DNA of 64,000 bases from Woeseiaceae bacterium. GTDB taxonomy: Bacteria > Pseudomonadota > Gammaproteobacteria > Steroidobacterales > Woeseiaceae. The position numbers and the translations under genes are program-made. The notes below the pieces were generated by a model. It saw only the letters and a list, made by a program, of their open reading frames with translations, had not been told where the DNA came from and did no database searches. Positions 4,562 through 33,764 of the stretch are shown here, one piece after another. The DNA lies in NCBI GenBank assembly GCA_037968975.1, contig JBBKWL010000018.1, forward strand, positions 13,303-77,302. Direction: 5' to 3'. How positions within the stretch are numbered: position 1 is the first letter of the stretch; each line of letters begins with the position of its first letter.

Positions 4562-5035
4562 TTAATCGCGAGACGCTGGCTGCGGCCGTCTGTCCGTCAT
4601 GCGGTCCCGCAACCGCTTCCGTTGCTCCGGCGTCAGGTCCCGAAAGCGTTCGCGCAGCTTTCTGCGACGATCTGGCGGCATCTCCTTGAAGCGGCGGAAA
4701 TTTTCCTTAACGCGCCGTTGGTCGGCCGGCGACATGTCACGAAACTCACCGTAACGCTTGCGAATTTGTTCGCGTTGCGTGTCCGTCAGTTTGCGCCAGC
4801 TATTAAAGCGCTGCTGCGCATCTTCGCGCTCCGCGCCGGACATTTGTGTCCAGCGATCTGCGCCAATGGCTAGTTGCTCTTGTCGCTGCGGCTCAAGCTG
4901 ATCCCAACCTTCAGAGTAGGTACTCAGCACCTTCTTCTGATCGTCACTCAGTCCGTCCCAGTGCACGCCATCGTCAGCATTCACCGTGCTCCAGGCCAGC
5001 AGCGCTGCAATAGCGATTATGTGTTTAGCTTTCAT
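4562..5035 (-). CDS. Exported repeat protein, DUF3106-like (last gene of an ECF sigma module)
   Basis: I start it at MKAKHIIAIAALLAWSTVNA (signal peptide; ATG is rc of 5033-5035). It has repeated W..L....R / ...QR..R helical units (RWTQMSGAEREDAQQRFNSWRKLTDTQREQIRKRYGEFRDMSPADQRRVKENFRRFKEM). The family name is from memory. Confidence 0.7.
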   Translation of the reverse strand: MKAKHIIAIAALLAWSTVNADDGVHWDGLSDDQKKVLSTYSEGWDQLEPQRQEQLAIGADRWTQMSGAEREDAQQRFNSWRKLTDTQREQIRKRYGEFRDMSPADQRRVKENFRRFKEMPPDRRRKLRERFRDLTPEQRKRLRDRMTDRRPQPASRD

Positions 5036-5270
5036 CACGTTTCTCCGTCGACTCTTCACCTTCCGGCGCGGGTTCGCTCCGCTGCTGGTCCTGGTTGTCG
5101 GCATTGAGCGGGTCATTGAACATCACCCAATCTTCATCCGATTCTTCCCAAAGTCCCAGGTACTCCAAAAATTCGATTTCCGGCAGTTCTTCATCGGCTA
5201 CGACCACAACACTGCAGGCAAGCAATAAGAAGACCGTCATTGGTCGGCTAGCCAACATTGCCACCCGCAT
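5025..5270 (-). CDS. Small acidic exported protein (hypothetical)
   Basis: Hydrophobic leader MTVFLLLACSVVVVA, then a very acidic tail (EELPEIEFLEYLGLWEESDEDW...EGEESTEKRDES). The start is ambiguous (ATG at 5270, 5258 or 5240). It overlaps the next gene's start by 11 nt. Confidence 0.45.
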   Translation of the reverse strand: MRVAMLASRPMTVFLLLACSVVVVADEELPEIEFLEYLGLWEESDEDWVMFNDPLNADNQDQQRSEPAPEGEESTEKRDES

Positions 5271-5691
5271 CCAGGTCGGCGGCATCCATCCAACTGTAAA
5301 ACTCGAGATCCTCCAGCATCTCCAGACTCTCGCCTTGCAGAAGAATTTCGAAATCGGAAACCACTTCAACCGGCATGCTTTCGAGTTCCGGTCCGCGCAT
5401 CACGATTATGCTGACCAAAGCTGCCGCAGCGATGCCGCCTGCCGGCACCCAACGAACCCAGGCAGCCCTGTGCCTGCCACCGGCCAACTGCTCCAATGCT
5501 GCATGCCGGCCCTGGTTGAGACGCGATAATGCGGCGGCATCGAGACGCTCGACGCTAGCGTCGAAGACGCTTTTTGCCTGCGCCGCAAAATCGTCGCTAT
5601 CGATTGCCTTGTTGCCGCCCGGTGTGTTGCCACCTGGTTTGTTAGCACCTGGTTTGTTATCACCTGGTTTGTTATCAATAGGCTCGTTCAT
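5248..5691 (-). CDS. Putative membrane-anchored anti-sigma partner (DUF3619-like)
   Basis: 147 aa. Its ATG overlaps the sigma gene stop (5688-5691). One central TM helix (WVRWVPAGGIAAAALVSIIVM). The N-terminus has NKPG-type pentapeptide repeats. Assignment rests on position and topology only. Confidence 0.55.
   Translation of the reverse strand: MNEPIDNKPGDNKPGANKPGGNTPGGNKAIDSDDFAAQAKSVFDASVERLDAAALSRLNQGRHAALEQLAGGRHRAAWVRWVPAGGIAAAALVSIIVMRGPELESMPVEVVSDFEILLQGESLEMLEDLEFYSWMDAADLDAGGNVG
5616..5675. repeat. 15-bp tandem repeat (about 4 units) encoding the NKPG(D/A/G) pentapeptide repeats
   Basis: cacctggtttgttag / cacctggtttgttat / cacctggtttgttat, preceded by the degenerate unit cgcccggtgtgttgc. 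Confidence 0.8.
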
Positions 5692-6305
5692 TGCCAGTGT
5701 TCTCCTAACTTGTCCCGCAAGGTGTGAACCGCACGGGAATAGTGTGTCTTGACGCTGCCTTCAGAACAGCCCATTGCAACTGCTGTTCCGGCAACATCCA
5801 GCCCTTCAAATGTACGTAACATGAATGCTTCACGTTGTCGGCCAGGCAGTGCATGTACGGAACTTTCAAGTTTTCGCATTGCCTGCCCGGTTTGCAATTC
5901 CTGCTCCGGCGACCGGCCTGCGAGATCAGGAGCAGAGGCAACCACGTCGTATTCGTCGTCGCCCGATTTACCGCGTCCAAACCACACCATGACGCGGTTC
6001 TTAACCTTCTGACGGCGATGCCAGTCGCGAATTCCGTTTTGCAAGATGCGATAGAACAGTGGCGTCCATTCTGCTTCCGGGCGGCTGGCGTAATTGTTCA
6101 CCAGTTTGATCATGGCATTTTGCACCAGGTCCAGCGCCTCATCGCGATCACGAACCGCGATCTGTGCGATACGCAACGCTCGCCGCTCAACTTCGGCAAG
6201 GAACTGATTTAGTTGGCGTTCGCGTTGCAGCGTACCTGCCCCTGTTGATGGCTCGCGCATGCACGATACCGCAAAATAACCTGTATTGGCTTCGATCAGC
6301 TCCAT
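5688..6305 (-). CDS. ECF-type RNA polymerase sigma-70 factor
   Basis: Region 2 (ALDLVQNAMIKLV...LFYRILQNGIRDWHRR) and region 4 HTH (REAFMLRTFEGLDVAGTAVAMGCSEGSVKTHYSRAVHTLR). Start chosen at ATG 6305 because AGGAGG lies 9 nt upstream. An alternative ATG is at 6260. Confidence 0.85.
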   Translation of the reverse strand: MELIEANTGYFAVSCMREPSTGAGTLQRERQLNQFLAEVERRALRIAQIAVRDRDEALDLVQNAMIKLVNNYASRPEAEWTPLFYRILQNGIRDWHRRQKVKNRVMVWFGRGKSGDDEYDVVASAPDLAGRSPEQELQTGQAMRKLESSVHALPGRQREAFMLRTFEGLDVAGTAVAMGCSEGSVKTHYSRAVHTLRDKLGEHWQ

Positions 6306-6482
6306 CTGGCCCGTCCTCCTGTCTGCAATCACGGCTCCACGACACGGTCCAATCTGTGTCACTCTTATATAACGCCGGATTGAGCAAGCGGTTGACAGCC
6401 AGATCAAGCCGGATTTGGCAGCGCATTATGTAAAATACATTCGGTTTTGTTTATCGTAACTTATTGATTATATTAACTATCT

Positions 6483-19047: not shown

Positions 19048-19280
19048 AATTTCTATACTGCAGAAAGTTAGTTATTCGCGTAAATTGCGACCAAACGAGT
19101 CTAAATGATTGACTTTACTTAATAAAATGTCAGACAATTGCCGCCAGACGAACTCATCCCGGTAGCAGATTACGCCCGGAAATGTGACGTAATTGGCAGC
19201 TTCGACGGCACCGGAACGACATATTATAGCAACGCCAAAAAGCTAAAGGTCTCAACACCGTGCATGGAGTATTGAGCAAC

Positions 19281-29697: not shown

Positions 29698-30135
29698 TCA
29701 ACTTAGCCAGCCGCGATTCTTCGTTACGCGTGCGTACAACAGCAGCGCGATGCCGATAACAAATACCATCGACGGAATGATCAGGCTGCTGACACCCACA
29801 ATACCGTATGCATCTCTAAGAACGAACGCGTCGACATCCTGCGCGACAATTGCCAGCAGCGAAATTATGAACATGGGTATGGCCCAGGTCTTGCGCAACA
29901 GCAGGAACAGACTACCCAGCACGCCCGCGTTGACCGCAATCGCGAAAGCAGCGGTCGCCCAGGTCGGGGTGCCAATGAAAAATTCTTGTTGCGCCTCGGT
30001 CAGCGCCGCAAGCGCCTCAGGTGTAATCGTCACCTGTCCGATATAGAAAACCAGTCCGATCAGGTTCCAGACCAGCGCCGCGGCACTGATAATCCAGAAA
30101 TTGGTGCTCGGCTTGCCATTGATAATGTCCGACAT
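29698..30135 (-). CDS. Four-TM membrane protein (hypothetical)
   Basis: I start it at MSDIINGKPSTNFWIISAAALVW (ATG is rc of 30133-30135). The 241-aa version in the track would overlap tag. Confidence 0.6.
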   Translation of the reverse strand: MSDIINGKPSTNFWIISAAALVWNLIGLVFYIGQVTITPEALAALTEAQQEFFIGTPTWATAAFAIAVNAGVLGSLFLLLRKTWAIPMFIISLLAIVAQDVDAFVLRDAYGIVGVSSLIIPSMVFVIGIALLLYARVTKNRGWLS

Positions 30136-30181
30136 CGTGACCCCCTTTGTTGTTGGCCCTGTCTGCCGGGCCCAAACGAGG

Positions 30182-30763
30182 CTATAAAGTAGCGCAGGGT
30201 TTGTGTCGGAAGCAACTGGTGACATGGTCGTTGACCAGGCCGGTCGCCTGCATGTGCGCATACATGATGGTGCTGCCAACGAATTTGAAGCCACGTTTCT
30301 TGAGGTCATTGCTGAGCGCATCCGACTCTGCTGATGTGGCCGGAATATCACTGTCTTTCTTGAAGCGGTTTTGAATCGGCTTGCCGTCGACAAAACCCCA
30401 TATGTACTTGCTGAAGCTGCCAAACTCCTGTTGCACTGCGATGAACGCCTTGGCGTTGCTCACGGCAGACTCCACCTTCAGGCGATTACGAACGACCGCC
30501 GGGTCCAGCAGGATCTTTGCGATGCGCTTTGGCGTGAAACGAGCCACTTTCTCCACATCGAAGTCGGCGAAAAGTTTTCGATAACCCTCGCGCTTGTTCA
30601 GTATTGTCGACCAGCTTAGTCCGGCCTGTGCGCCTTCAAGAATCAGAAATTCAAACTGCACACGGTCGTCGAAAACCGGCACGCCCCATTCGGTGTCGTG
30701 ATACTCGATGTACTTCAGGCTGGTGTCTTGCGCCCATTGACAGCGCTTAGTCTTTTTAGTCAT
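30182..30763 (-). CDS. tag: DNA-3-methyladenine glycosylase I
   Basis: MTKKTKRCQWA....YHDTEWGVP..DD...FE.L.LEG.QAGLSW; C-terminal H..ATG..NDH...C zinc-site residues. Confidence 0.9.
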   Translation of the reverse strand: MTKKTKRCQWAQDTSLKYIEYHDTEWGVPVFDDRVQFEFLILEGAQAGLSWSTILNKREGYRKLFADFDVEKVARFTPKRIAKILLDPAVVRNRLKVESAVSNAKAFIAVQQEFGSFSKYIWGFVDGKPIQNRFKKDSDIPATSAESDALSNDLKKRGFKFVGSTIMYAHMQATGLVNDHVTSCFRHKPCATL

Positions 30764-30832
30764 AGCACTAAATCTAGCAGCTGCCGCCGGTTTCTGCTCA
30801 CGCAATAATTCGCCACAACACCACCTTTCCCC

Positions 30833-30898
30833 AAAACCAGGGACAGTTTACTCAAACACCATTTTAAATTGGTGTTTGAGTAAACTGTCCCTGGTTTT
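30833..30898. repeat. Palindromic repeat element, copy B: perfect 28-bp inverted arms around a 10-nt loop
   Basis: Left arm 30833-30860 is aaaaccagggacagtttactcaaacacc. Right arm 30871-30898 is its exact reverse complement. Same 24-nt core as 760-856. Confidence 0.9.
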
Positions 30899-30904
30899 TT
30901 TGGG

Positions 30905-30934
30905 CACAAAAAAGCCCGCGCGGTGCGCGGGCTT
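30905..30934 (-). terminator. Rho-independent terminator after the Cys-repeat peptide gene
   Basis: On the minus strand: aagcccgcgc-acc-gcgcgggctt followed by ttttgtgccc. Confidence 0.75.
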
Positions 30935-30963
30935 GGTCTTGCTTACTACTGGTTGCGTCAGTC

Positions 30964-31374
30964 TTACTTCTTGTCGCCGCCACAAGAACCTTCAGCTTCT
31001 TTCTCGCCACCACAAGAACCTTCAGCATCTTTCTCACCGCCACAAGATCCTTCAGCATCTTTCTCGCCGCCGCAAGAACCTTCAGCGTCCTTGTCGCCGC
31101 CACAGGAACCTTCAGCGCCTTTATCTTTGCCTTCGCCTTCCTTGTCGCCGCCGCAGCTACCTTCGCCGCATGAGCCTTCTGTTTCTTGCTTGCCTTCTTT
31201 GTCGCCACCACAAGCGCCTTCTTCGCCCAGCAGGAAGCCGGAACTCAGGGAGGTCATTGCGAATGGGCTTTGTACAACTTCGGCAGTTGCGATGCTTGAA
31301 CCAAGCGCAAACGATCCAGCTAATGCTGCGCCAACAGCCAACGCAATAGGTTTAATCACTTTCTTATCCGACAT
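30964..31374 (-). CDS. Signal-peptide EG(S/A)CGG-repeat cysteine-rich peptide (HvfA-like RiPP precursor / metallophore-type low-complexity protein)
   Basis: 136 aa. Sec leader MSDKKVIKPIALAVGAALAGSFALGSSIATA, conserved-looking SPFAMTSLSSGFLLG, then 8 Cys, all in EGxCG(G/E) units (5 consecutive EGSCGG(D/E)K(D/E)A decapeptides). AGGAG RBS. The + strand ORFs 30876-31349 and 30923-31396 are shadows. Confidence 0.75.
   Translation of the reverse strand: MSDKKVIKPIALAVGAALAGSFALGSSIATAEVVQSPFAMTSLSSGFLLGEEGACGGDKEGKQETEGSCGEGSCGGDKEGEGKDKGAEGSCGGDKDAEGSCGGEKDAEGSCGGEKDAEGSCGGEKEAEGSCGGDKK
30971..31120. repeat. Five tandem 30-bp units (coding decapeptide repeats)
   Basis: Units start at 30971, 31001, 31031, 31061 and 31091, e.g. 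ttctcgccaccacaagaaccttcagcatct. They differ at only a few positions. More degenerate copies continue to about 31215. Confidence 0.9.
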
Positions 31375-31410
31375 CTTCTTTCTCCTACAGGGTTAATGGG
31401 TATGGTGGGA

Positions 31411-32124
31411 TTAGGTCTCCCACGTCACCGATTGCAAAATTTGCTTTTGTACATCTTCCAGCTCTTCTTCCCGAGAACCAATGATGGCAATACTGCCGTC
31501 GCCTACAGGCAATATGACACCGTGAGAATTCTCATCGTTCAATGTAATTGCCTCGGAAATCTTTTCGTTCGGCAACAACATAATCGTAATTGGACCGTGC
31601 TGACCCTGGATAACCAGGTGCGGTACTTCGTAGCCGCTGATCGGACAGGTCTCTGCAAAGGTAATCAGCCCGACGTTGTGATCCATGTTCGCAATATTCT
31701 GCGGCACGACTTCGTGCAGATGGTCGGCCGGTACTGTCTTGTCAGTTATCTGTAAAGCTTTCGGCTCGTGCGTCACATGCGCCAACACTTCCTGGGCCAG
31801 TGAATCGTAGTTGCTGCTGGTGTCGGCACTAAAACGAAAACCGATGAACACCGCCAGCGCGACGGTCGCGGCCACCGCAAACCAGCTTTTTACAGCAACC
31901 CGGCGGCGCGGCTCAAGTGCTACGACATTGCCGGTATCGATTGCGTCCAGCGATGGCATGACGAGTTCCGGAACGTCAAGCGCGAGCGCCCGACCGATCT
32001 TCAGATCCAGCGCCAGCATCTCGCGACGATACTCCTGGCACGACGCGCACTCACTGACGTGTCCTGCTCCGCCATCGAAGCTGGGGTCTGCGCCTAGTGC
32101 CTGTTTGTAGTCGTCGCAATTCAT
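31411..32124 (-). CDS. Anti-sigma factor: N-terminal zf-HC2, one TM helix, periplasmic DUF3379-like domain
   Basis: MNCDDYKQALGADPSFDGGAGHVSECASCQEYRREM (H-x3-C-x2-C), TM WFAVAATVALAVFIGF. The ATG overlaps the sigma stop by 4 nt. Confidence 0.75.
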   Translation of the reverse strand: MNCDDYKQALGADPSFDGGAGHVSECASCQEYRREMLALDLKIGRALALDVPELVMPSLDAIDTGNVVALEPRRRVAVKSWFAVAATVALAVFIGFRFSADTSSNYDSLAQEVLAHVTHEPKALQITDKTVPADHLHEVVPQNIANMDHNVGLITFAETCPISGYEVPHLVIQGQHGPITIMLLPNEKISEAITLNDENSHGVILPVGDGSIAIIGSREEELEDVQKQILQSVTWET

Positions 32125-32636
32125 AGTGTTGCCTGCTGTTCCATTACGTCCCTGAGCTTTGCCCTTGCTCTGTGTAACCGCGTTAATACCGCGCCTTGTT
32201 TCAAATTCATTTGTTCTGCGATCTCGTTGGTGCTGAATCCCATCATGACCTGTAGTACCAGCGGTTCGCGATAATCATCTTCCAGTGCATAAATAGCCGC
32301 ACGCATATCACCAAGATCATCATCCGGCTGTTCGGCCAGCAAAGCAGCTTGTGAGGCGGTCAGATTGTCGATATCGACTGTCTCGAGCCTTTTTCGCTCG
32401 AAGTACCTGGCGTTTTCCCGACGTACGATCGTCAACAGCCAGGGTTTGGCCGCCGAGTCATCGCGTAGTGCCTCCAGCGATTTCCACGCCCTCAGCATCG
32501 ACTCTTGTACTACGTCTTCAGCGATCGCTTTGTCCCTGCATAACCAGGCGGCATAGCGATACATATCCTGATGGAATACAGCCACTATCTGATCAAATCT
32601 CTTGCGCCGAACAATGTCGGCATTGTTGCTTTGCAT
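32121..32636 (-). CDS. ECF-type RNA polymerase sigma-70 factor
   Basis: 171 aa. Region 2 YRYAAWLCRDKAIAEDVVQESMLRAWKS; region 4 YREPLVLQVMMGFSTNEIAEQMNLKQGAVLTRLHRARAKLR. Confidence 0.88.
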   Translation of the reverse strand: MQSNNADIVRRKRFDQIVAVFHQDMYRYAAWLCRDKAIAEDVVQESMLRAWKSLEALRDDSAAKPWLLTIVRRENARYFERKRLETVDIDNLTASQAALLAEQPDDDLGDMRAAIYALEDDYREPLVLQVMMGFSTNEIAEQMNLKQGAVLTRLHRARAKLRDVMEQQATL

Positions 32637-32744
32637 ACGAGAAGACCCGCCTGTTCTTGGTTTTATTACGGAATGCAGCGAAAACTGTGATTCAGGCGTG
32701 GAATCCCACCCTAAATACAGGGAAAATCACAGCTTATAAGGTAA

Positions 32745-33764
<1,020 letters not shown>

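Follow-up and report, generated by a model that had tools for sequence, protein, structure and literature searches.

According to the current assignment, MNIO-PME1 enzyme pairs install 5-thiooxazoles in their precursor peptides, and the products form a class that has been named captophorins (PMC13097082). One captophorin is fontiphorin, from the fon cluster of Fontimonas thermophila (DoxX-FonA-FonB-FonC), where the precursor FonA is an experimentally proven MNIO-PME1 substrate that functions in Cu(I) binding (PMC13097082). Two further systems place an exported EGxCG-repeat peptide under an extracytoplasmic function (ECF) sigma factor with a ZAS-type (zinc-binding) anti-sigma factor: hvf in non-typeable Haemophilus influenzae (HvfX-HvfA-HvfB-HvfC; oxazolin) and ngo/SigE in Neisseria. 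Both respond to hypochlorite or oxidative stress: RpoE2/HrsE induces the Haemophilus doxX-hvfABC operon after hypochlorite, and SigE does likewise in Neisseria. In Caulobacter, the buf1 and buf2 clusters are controlled by SigF/NrsF, an ECF sigma/anti-sigma pair beside a signal-peptide Cys-peptide system, with an autoregulated promoter and induction by copper. Here we describe a related locus in a 64,000-nucleotide stretch of DNA from a Woeseiaceae bacterium (contig JBBKWL010000018.1, positions 13,303 to 77,302; “the window”). On its minus strand lies a predicted operon for an ECF sigma factor, a DUF3379 anti-sigma factor and an exported cysteine-repeat peptide that we file as a divergent captophorin precursor, and no maturase gene was found near it.

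The sigma gene (32121-32636, 171 aa), the anti-sigma gene (31411-32124, 237 aa) and the gene of the HvfA/EGKCG (captophorin)-family exported precursor, in an EGSCG variant (30964-31374, 136 aa), follow one another in the same direction. The stop codon of the first overlaps the start codon of the second by 4 nt (ATGA), and a 36-nt spacer separates the second from the third. Within this spacer we read a Shine-Dalgarno sequence, TAGGAG, at 31382-31387; the element GTAGGAGA stands 6 nt 5' of the peptide ATG. An intrinsic terminator at 30912-30934, consisting of a 10-pair stem (8 G-C), a 3-nt loop and the run TTTTTTG, marks the end of the operon. These observations agree with a preliminary description of this DNA, which had reported three co-directional genes, a 4-nt overlap, an AGGAG ribosome-binding site in a 36-nt gap and a strong terminator belonging to the unit itself. 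Comparison of the anti-sigma/peptide spacers showed that GTAGGAGA is kept in 81 relatives, and conservation extends to both the Shine-Dalgarno sequence and the terminator.

No signal that would separate the peptide gene from the two regulatory genes was detected. There is no terminator between the anti-sigma and peptide genes, a sigma-70 promoter scan of the operon region found none, and the promoter motif associated with the sigma factor (see below) is absent from 31375-31700, including the part inside the window's anti-sigma gene; the search for a -35/-10 pair that the preliminary description had suggested for this interval was therefore negative. Matches to the motif in the compared loci L133/L135 and L061/L064 may be chance occurrences in coding sequence. 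Since no second promoter or terminator lies ahead of it, the peptide gene is most simply the third cistron of an autoregulated operon. The earlier view that the precursor is wired to an envelope-stress-type regulator is borne out to the extent that it shares one operon with an ECF sigma/anti-sigma pair.

The spacer itself differs between lineages. Most Woeseiaceae relatives have a longer anti-sigma/peptide spacer with a short hairpin, GCCCGGTCTTGGGC (e.g. L011 10705-10773 and L003 9934-10001), which is missing in the clade of the window (the window itself, L001, L005-L008, L010, L019 and L040). This hairpin could act in processing, stabilisation or attenuation and in this way set the ratio of peptide to regulator.

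The sigma factor carries the Pfam domains Sigma70_r2 and r4_2 only. When classified as the preliminary description had recommended, it fell into the PRK12517 subfamily (NCBIfam NF009170), at 210 bits against a curated cutoff of 197 and with the next family at 84 bits. PRK12517 is also the best NCBIfam match of every sigma factor that is paired with DUF3379 in the loci that we compared. The anti-sigma factor matches DUF3379 (PF11859, E = 3e-30) and consists of a cytoplasmic N-terminal part, one transmembrane helix (approximately residues 79-98) and a periplasmic domain. The AlphaFold (AF2) model of this protein has a predicted local distance difference test (pLDDT) score of 68 overall and of about 75-87 in the periplasmic domain. 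It shows helices at 19-46 and 80-97 and is made up of an N-terminal helical domain, a single transmembrane helix and an alpha/beta periplasmic domain.

We assessed residue conservation in 117 diverse DUF3379 representatives; the search covered 1.8 billion cluster representatives, and 1343 clusters matched. Two groups of residues stood out. The cytoplasmic C3, H22, C26 and C29, which are conserved at 89-95%, form a ZAS-like C...H-x3-C-x2-C motif, and the periplasmic H116, E120, C160 and H169 are conserved at 93-100%. The anti-sigma factor had previously been called a zf-HC2 protein. The H-x3-C-x2-C signature behind that call (H22, C26 and C29, plus C3) is present and conserved family-wide, whereas a separate zf-HC2 domain is not called by Pfam. 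DUF3379 is not mentioned in the surveys of MNIO systems or their supplements, including PMC12452194.

The third gene encodes a peptide that begins with a Sec signal peptide (residues 1-31, 31282-31374; MSDKKVIKPIALAVGAALAGSFALGSSIATA, then E), in which an n-region (KK), an h-region and an ATA|E cleavage-type site (A-x-A) were recognised by eye. This signal peptide is conserved in all orthologs and aligns with that of FonA; in precursors of the HvfA class, a Sec signal of this kind takes the place of the classical RiPP leader. It is followed by a mature N-terminal box, SPFAMTSLSSGF (31234-31269), with the family pattern PF-x-[MIL]-x3-[LM]-x2-G[YF], which was found in 70/70 unique orthologs. Alignment matches the box to SVFQASDLGAGYM of FonA and to precursors from Solimonas and Fontimonas that adjoin MNIO genes. 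Further along is a tandem array of AEGSCGG(D/E)K(D/E) units (30974-31116; 4.8 copies of 30 nt, 88% matches and a score of 223 in Tandem Repeats Finder). All eight cysteines lie in EG[AS]CG[GE], five of these units in the array and the others upstream in EGACGG and EGSCGEGSCGG. The window peptide thus has one doublet (EGSCGEGSCG), and the Lys of E-G-K-C-G is replaced by Ser or Ala. The leader, the box and the placement of the eight Cys had all been noted beforehand, and we found them as described.

The cysteine context proved to be strict across the 70 unique orthologs. Of 567 Cys residues, 564 occur in [ED][GA]xCG; in 99% Cys is followed by Gly, and the position ahead of it is taken by S (83%), A, K or T, while the EGxCGEGxCG doublet is present in 69 of the 70 peptides. 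These data bear on the possibility that the 136-aa reading frame is a spurious low-complexity frame and the “trio” merely a sigma/anti-sigma pair. The coding region is repetitive, and there are long open reading frames (ORFs) in other frames and on the opposite strand too. However, the 70 orthologs vary in length and spacers but retain signal peptide, box and Cys context, the Shine-Dalgarno sequence and terminator are kept as well, the peptide has 1554 homologs in the database, and the family has experimentally characterised members. We rejected the spurious frame on the conservation among the 70 orthologs and consider it wholly implausible.

Some of the 1554 homologs are annotated as “HvfA family ... 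RiPP metallophore” (PGAP) and others as “uncharacterized low-complexity protein” (JGI). When orthologs were scored against the NCBIfam model of the HvfA family domain (NF050137), 7/10 were above the cutoff, at 21.6-58.8 bits, and the peptides of the distant loci L091 and L133 reached 44.6 and 46.7 bits. On the basis of these scores and of the alignment of signal peptide and box with FonA, we file the peptide as a divergent (EGSCG) HvfA/FonA captophorin precursor, a placement judged at the level of the ortholog group. Assignment to the bufferins, which was to be checked with bufferin-precursor models, found no support: the window peptide matched neither PF10048 (DUF2282, BufA1) nor NF050166, and phmmer with BufA1 returned nothing.

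The resemblance to FonA extends to the Sec signal, the N-terminal box (SVFQASDLGAGYM vs SPFAMTSLSSGFL) and the repeated E-[GA]-x-C-G units including doublets. Work on FonBC has shown that Cys is essential, that only Gly or Ala is accepted after it, that Ala, Arg and Thr are tolerated before it, and that two repeats are needed. NgoA, a proven substrate peptide, has AEGSCG units. Taken together, the FonBC rules and the NgoA units make the EGSCG units of the window peptide plausible substrates, and the Cys context of the orthologs (E-[GA]-x-C-G, with doublets) matches the rules. The strict context, the doublets and the FonA-like box would therefore fit an MNIO substrate. On the other hand, the residue preceding Cys is Lys in FonA and Ser or Ala in the window peptide, and the FonA gene lies directly beside its own MNIO, PME1 and DoxX genes, with neither an adjacent sigma/DUF3379 pair nor a GTAAT-N16-CGGTC motif. 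HvfA and NgoA differ in being without the N-terminal box. In the hvf and ngo systems, moreover, the anti-sigma factor is a small (67 aa) soluble ZAS peptide rather than a membrane-bound DUF3379 protein, the regulator genes are apart from the precursor, and the maturase and DoxX genes are part of the precursor operon.

To establish how widely the trio occurs, we searched one genome per species of GTDB with a DUF3379 alignment. This gave 80 loci, all of them in Woeseiaceae or in unclassified gammaproteobacterial metagenome-assembled genomes, and nearly all have the same kind of peptide gene directly 3' of the DUF3379 gene. Gene maps with precomputed Pfam matches revealed a fixed neighbourhood of hemB, the divergent sigma-DUF3379-peptide genes, tag and an S8 peptidase gene. 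The same synteny and an EGKCG peptide were found where DUF3379 is only about 33-35% identical (L090/L091 and L133). The comparison of gene neighbourhoods proposed earlier therefore shows strong conservation of the trio, in 80 loci with hemB/tag synteny.

Two variations on this arrangement were observed. At L089 (9474-10801), the hemB/tag synteny and a sigma/DUF3379 pair (34% identity) are present, there is no peptide gene, and the gap between DUF3379 and tag is 93 nt. Some Woeseiaceae genomes contain a second, paralogous trio (L060, L074, L078 and L080; genome pairs L012/L060 and L050/L083), the peptides of which have 196-232 aa and 15-16 Cys and end in the canonical EGKCGEGKCG.

One reading is that the peptide acts mainly as a regulatory partner of the anti-sigma factor and not as a bulk buffer; the box of the apo-peptide would dock on the periplasmic domain of DUF3379, and metal binding or oxidation of the Cys repeats would set sigma activity as a feedback sensor. 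In essentially all Woeseiaceae, as well as in L091, L133 and L148, the peptide gene comes immediately after the anti-sigma gene. The box, found in every one of the 70 orthologs, is the most conserved mature part of the peptide, although HvfA and FonA can undergo MNIO modification without the region that precedes the core. The top fold matches of the periplasmic domain, weak and not significant, are anti-sigma partners of the MucB/RseB type. However, DUF3379/sigma pairs also occur with BufA1 and BufA2 precursors that have no box, the L089 lineage has no peptide, and the same box is found in Nevskiales FonA-type precursors without an adjacent sigma/DUF3379 pair. We regard this role for the peptide as improbable.

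In the spacer between hemB and the sigma gene, 84 loci share a conserved block that ends in ...GTAATAAA-N15-CGGGTCAtCTCGtATG. The sequence GTAATAA is located exactly 33 nt from the sigma ATG in 77/84 loci, and a -10-like GGTC ends 7 nt before this ATG. No Shine-Dalgarno sequence precedes the sigma gene in the 84 loci, and the 16 nt through the start codon are almost invariant. If GTAAT is read as the -35 and GGTC as the -10 element, transcription would start at or just before the AUG, so that the sigma message is probably leaderless. In the window, this putative autoregulated, promoter-like element, GTAATAAAACCAAGAACAGGCGGGTCTTCT, occupies 32640-32669, with a -35-like GTAAT at 32665-32669 and a -10-like CGGGTC at 32644-32649, and a position matrix derived from the conserved block found this one site only. 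Loose matches to the motif are at chance level in the window (7 observed, 9.4 in shuffles); they include GTAAT-N19-GTC at 19143-19173 (minus strand), which is intergenic and lies upstream of def-fmt-rsmB.

The motif is not restricted to this operon. In the form GTAA[TCG]-N16/17-[CG]GGTC[TA], it lies ahead of genes for sigma factors and for BufA1, BufA2 and EGKCG precursors in unrelated lineages. Outside the Woeseiaceae we counted 31 matches where 6.6 were expected, 15 of them before sigma genes, seven before BufA2-like genes and one before an EGxCG gene. In L092 it stands ahead of both sigma and bufA1 and in L091 ahead of sigma, and BufA2-like genes have it upstream in L115, L118, L119, L140, L142 and L157 by the strict pattern and in L169 by a looser one. 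We infer that the GTAAT-N16-CGGTC element functions as a sigma-dependent promoter. The SigF site of Caulobacter, GTAACC-N16-CGAA, resembles it in the -35 half and differs in the -10 half (CGAA vs GGTC).

Distant relatives of the sigma/DUF3379 pair were found next to complete bufferin clusters. In L092/L093, a sigma gene and a DUF3379 gene (29% identity) are divergent from an adjoining BufA1-MNIO-HvfC-DoxX cluster, and the MNIO there is a “bufferin maturase” by NCBIfam. The window and L092 sigma factors are 64% identical over 139 aligned residues while their anti-sigma factors share only about 30%. A metagenome scan with a 6-sequence DUF3379 alignment added 80 loci from soil, freshwater and wetland. 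Among those with at least 4 kb on both sides, 7/24, some of them near-duplicates, have MNIO and HvfC, mostly with DoxX and BufA1. Many of the metagenome loci have BufA2-type 6-Cys peptides just upstream of sigma/DUF3379, and on the short contigs L133 and L148 the order sigma-DUF3379-EGKCG peptide was seen again. The pairs beside BufA1-MNIO-HvfC-DoxX (L092, L127, L131, L140, L155, L157 and L169) are like that of the window in sigma subfamily, anti-sigma family and promoter motif; they differ in that maturase and DoxX genes are adjacent and that the precursors are BufA1 or BufA2, often divergently transcribed. Because such pairs adjoin complete clusters, and because one promoter motif precedes both sigma and precursor genes, sigma/DUF3379 looks like a dedicated regulator of captophorin/bufferin metallophore systems. 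We propose that DUF3379 proteins serve as anti-sigma factors to a PRK12517-type ECF sigma factor dedicated to these systems.

The link that the preliminary description had drawn to Caulobacter, namely that bufferins there are under an ECF sigma/anti-sigma pair, is published for SigF/NrsF, with buf1 and buf2 responding to copper. The Caulobacter clusters differ from the window in their anti-sigma factor (NrsF, DUF1109, with six transmembrane helices), in their precursors (DUF2282 or 6-Cys) and in having MNIO, DUF2063 and DoxX genes adjacent. A survey of the MNIO landscape (PMC12452194) contains stand-alone bufferin and oxazolin precursors, and precursors unlinked to an MNIO gene make up a sizeable fraction there; it does not describe a conserved sigma/DUF3379/precursor operon, and it gives sigma genes only for Buf1 clusters with NrsF. 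The suggestion of an undescribed stress-inducible module must be divided. ECF control of hvf and buf and the existence of stand-alone precursor genes are already known, whereas the DUF3379 anti-sigma factor, the incorporation of the precursor into the regulator operon, and the clade-wide lack of a linked maturase and DoxX set the Woeseiaceae operon apart. The chemistry assumed earlier for HvfA cysteines, oxazolone/thioamide, has been superseded by the 5-thiooxazole assignment (PMC13097082).

Several observations weigh against the full model set out below, in which an envelope-stress operon yields a peptide that is matured in trans. Every ORF of at least 70 aa in the window was translated and compared with Pfam at E <= 1e-4, and the 64 kb gave no match to PF05114 (MbnB_TglH_ChrH, DUF692), PF09836 (HvfC_N, DUF2063) or PF07681 (DoxX). 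A first MNIO probe, an MbnB-only profile, reached 3BWW at just 2e-9 and was hence replaced by real sequences: 3BWW; the L092 BufB-type MNIO, HvfC, DoxX and BufA1; and FonB/C, HvfB/C and NgoB/C. With these phmmer probes, no MNIO, HvfC or DoxX was found among the window ORFs or in about 1.5 Mb around the trio (up to 10 kb) in about 88 relatives, and the same probes matched the positive-control loci strongly. The preliminary statement that no MNIO or DUF2063 gene is present in 64 kb thus holds by both methods and can be extended to the surroundings of these relatives' trios. Woeseiales are not among the orders in the census of PMC13097082 (Table S3), which assigns to orders about 20,000 MNIO-PME1 clusters from RefSeq whose precursors were identified and includes even orders that have just one cluster. 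This absence is weak evidence because RefSeq has few Woeseiales and a pair without an adjacent precursor would go uncounted. In addition, the window peptide itself, with its single doublet, scores 16.0 bits with NF050137, just below the cutoff of 19.5, so the HvfA class named in the preliminary description is supported at the level of the ortholog group. Finally, a fold search of the anti-sigma periplasmic domain against the PDB gave nothing significant (best MucB/RseB-like, E = 0.08), which makes the sensing mechanism a guess from conserved residues. A protein search with FonB was uninformative on Woeseiaceae, as among the matches listed there were only Nevskiales, at 65-96% identity.

An arrangement without a linked maturase was also seen elsewhere. 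In L112, L118, L119 and L158, sigma/DUF3379 has a BufA2-type 6-Cys precursor gene a short way upstream, and there is no MNIO in the DNA examined (full 10-kb flanks only for L119; L112 and L158 are short contigs). In L118/L119 the BufA2-type precursor is preceded by a sigma-type promoter, and a weak DoxX-like gene is also there. Precursor and regulator without a linked maturase are thus not confined to Woeseiaceae.

One possible explanation for these data keeps the operon and its regulation as in the model below but supposes that Woeseiaceae have no MNIO or PME1 at all and that the unmodified EGSCG peptide serves as an inducible periplasmic thiol/disulfide sink for Cu(I), soft metals and oxidants, in an MNIO-independent branch of HvfA. 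The missing maturase near the roughly 88 loci and in the window, and the missing Woeseiales in the RefSeq census, are what this explanation leads one to expect. Without modification, HvfA retains the ability to bind about 2-3 Cu(I) (PMC11252979), the Lys at position 3 has become Ser in 83% of units, a departure from canonical EGKCG, and BufA2-like precursors beside sigma/DUF3379 are likewise without a nearby MNIO in L118 and L119. However, MNIO-PME1 substrates show exactly these features, a near-invariant E-[GA]-x-C-G context, doublets and a FonA-type box, for which a thiol sponge would have no obvious need, although recent duplication of repeats could also preserve them. Free Cys in the oxidising periplasm would be prone to form disulfides, and flanks of 10-30 kb permit no statement on the rest of a 3-4 Mb genome. 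We consider this explanation possible and somewhat doubtful. Its broader form, in which Woeseiales as a whole are without MNIO-PME1, the sigma factor induces an unmodified periplasmic thiol peptide, and the His/Glu/Cys/His site of DUF3379 is a metal or oxidant sensor, we likewise put forward only tentatively.

The reading that we prefer is that the operon is a self-amplifying envelope-stress unit with a precursor that is matured in trans. In this model, DUF3379 would hold the ECF sigma factor at the membrane through its ZAS-like Zn/Cys cytoplasmic domain until a periplasmic signal frees it. The likeliest candidates for this signal are copper or some other thiophilic metal and oxidants such as hypochlorite, and the periplasmic His, Glu, Cys and His of DUF3379 are residues of the metal-ligand type. 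The freed sigma factor would then transcribe its own operon from the GTAAT-N16-CGGTC element abutting the sigma start codon, and the third gene, with its strong ribosome-binding site, would yield large amounts of Sec-exported peptide. An unlinked MNIO-PME1 pair under the same sigma factor would convert the Cys residues to 5-thiooxazoles (-4 Da each, absorbance at 305 nm) before export, and the peptide, with its eight E-G-S-C-G units, may sequester Cu(I) or absorb oxidant in the periplasm. The regulatory half of this model stands on good comparative evidence from operon structure, the predicted identity of sigma and anti-sigma factors, the shared promoter and the link to captophorins. Maturation in trans is, above all other steps, the conjectural one, and we rate the chance that the model is right in full as about even.

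Other features of the region were also recorded. A palindrome resembling repetitive extragenic palindromic (REP) elements, with 33-nt arms that are 97% complementary, lies at 30833-30898, between the operon terminator and tag. A second copy with 1-2 mismatches is located at 763-853, adjoining a minus-strand ORF with an HNH endonuclease domain (855-1541). Rfam gave nothing over threshold in 30000-33500, with only hairpin artefacts at this palindrome, and its hairpin matches there were all sub-threshold. Downstream of tag, a membrane protein of about 150 aa with four transmembrane helices (29698-30150, minus strand) has no Pfam match, and neither Pfam nor phmmer identified it as DoxX; its position is kept in relatives (L001 11225-11662, L003 13672-14118 and L085 11230-11670). 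An unrelated second ECF module at 4562-6407 (minus strand) comprises a sigma gene (5688-6407, Sigma70_r4_2), a small ORF (5248-5691) and a gene for a DUF3106 protein (4562-5116).

These data suggest a testable role for DUF3379, a family of more than 1300 clusters at 50% identity without literature on its function, and they provide a defined promoter motif that can be used for mapping regulons. They also raise a question for work on MNIO enzymes, namely whether stand-alone precursors undergo maturation in trans or EGxCG peptides can work unmodified. If the peptide were unmodified throughout Woeseiales, it would be the first functional branch of captophorin precursors to do without MNIO, within a clade that ranks among the most abundant bacteria of marine sediments. 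Woeseiaceae are cosmopolitan and abundant core members of these sediments and, as the trio belongs to their core genome at a fixed locus, it probably helps them to withstand stress from metals or oxidants at redox interfaces.

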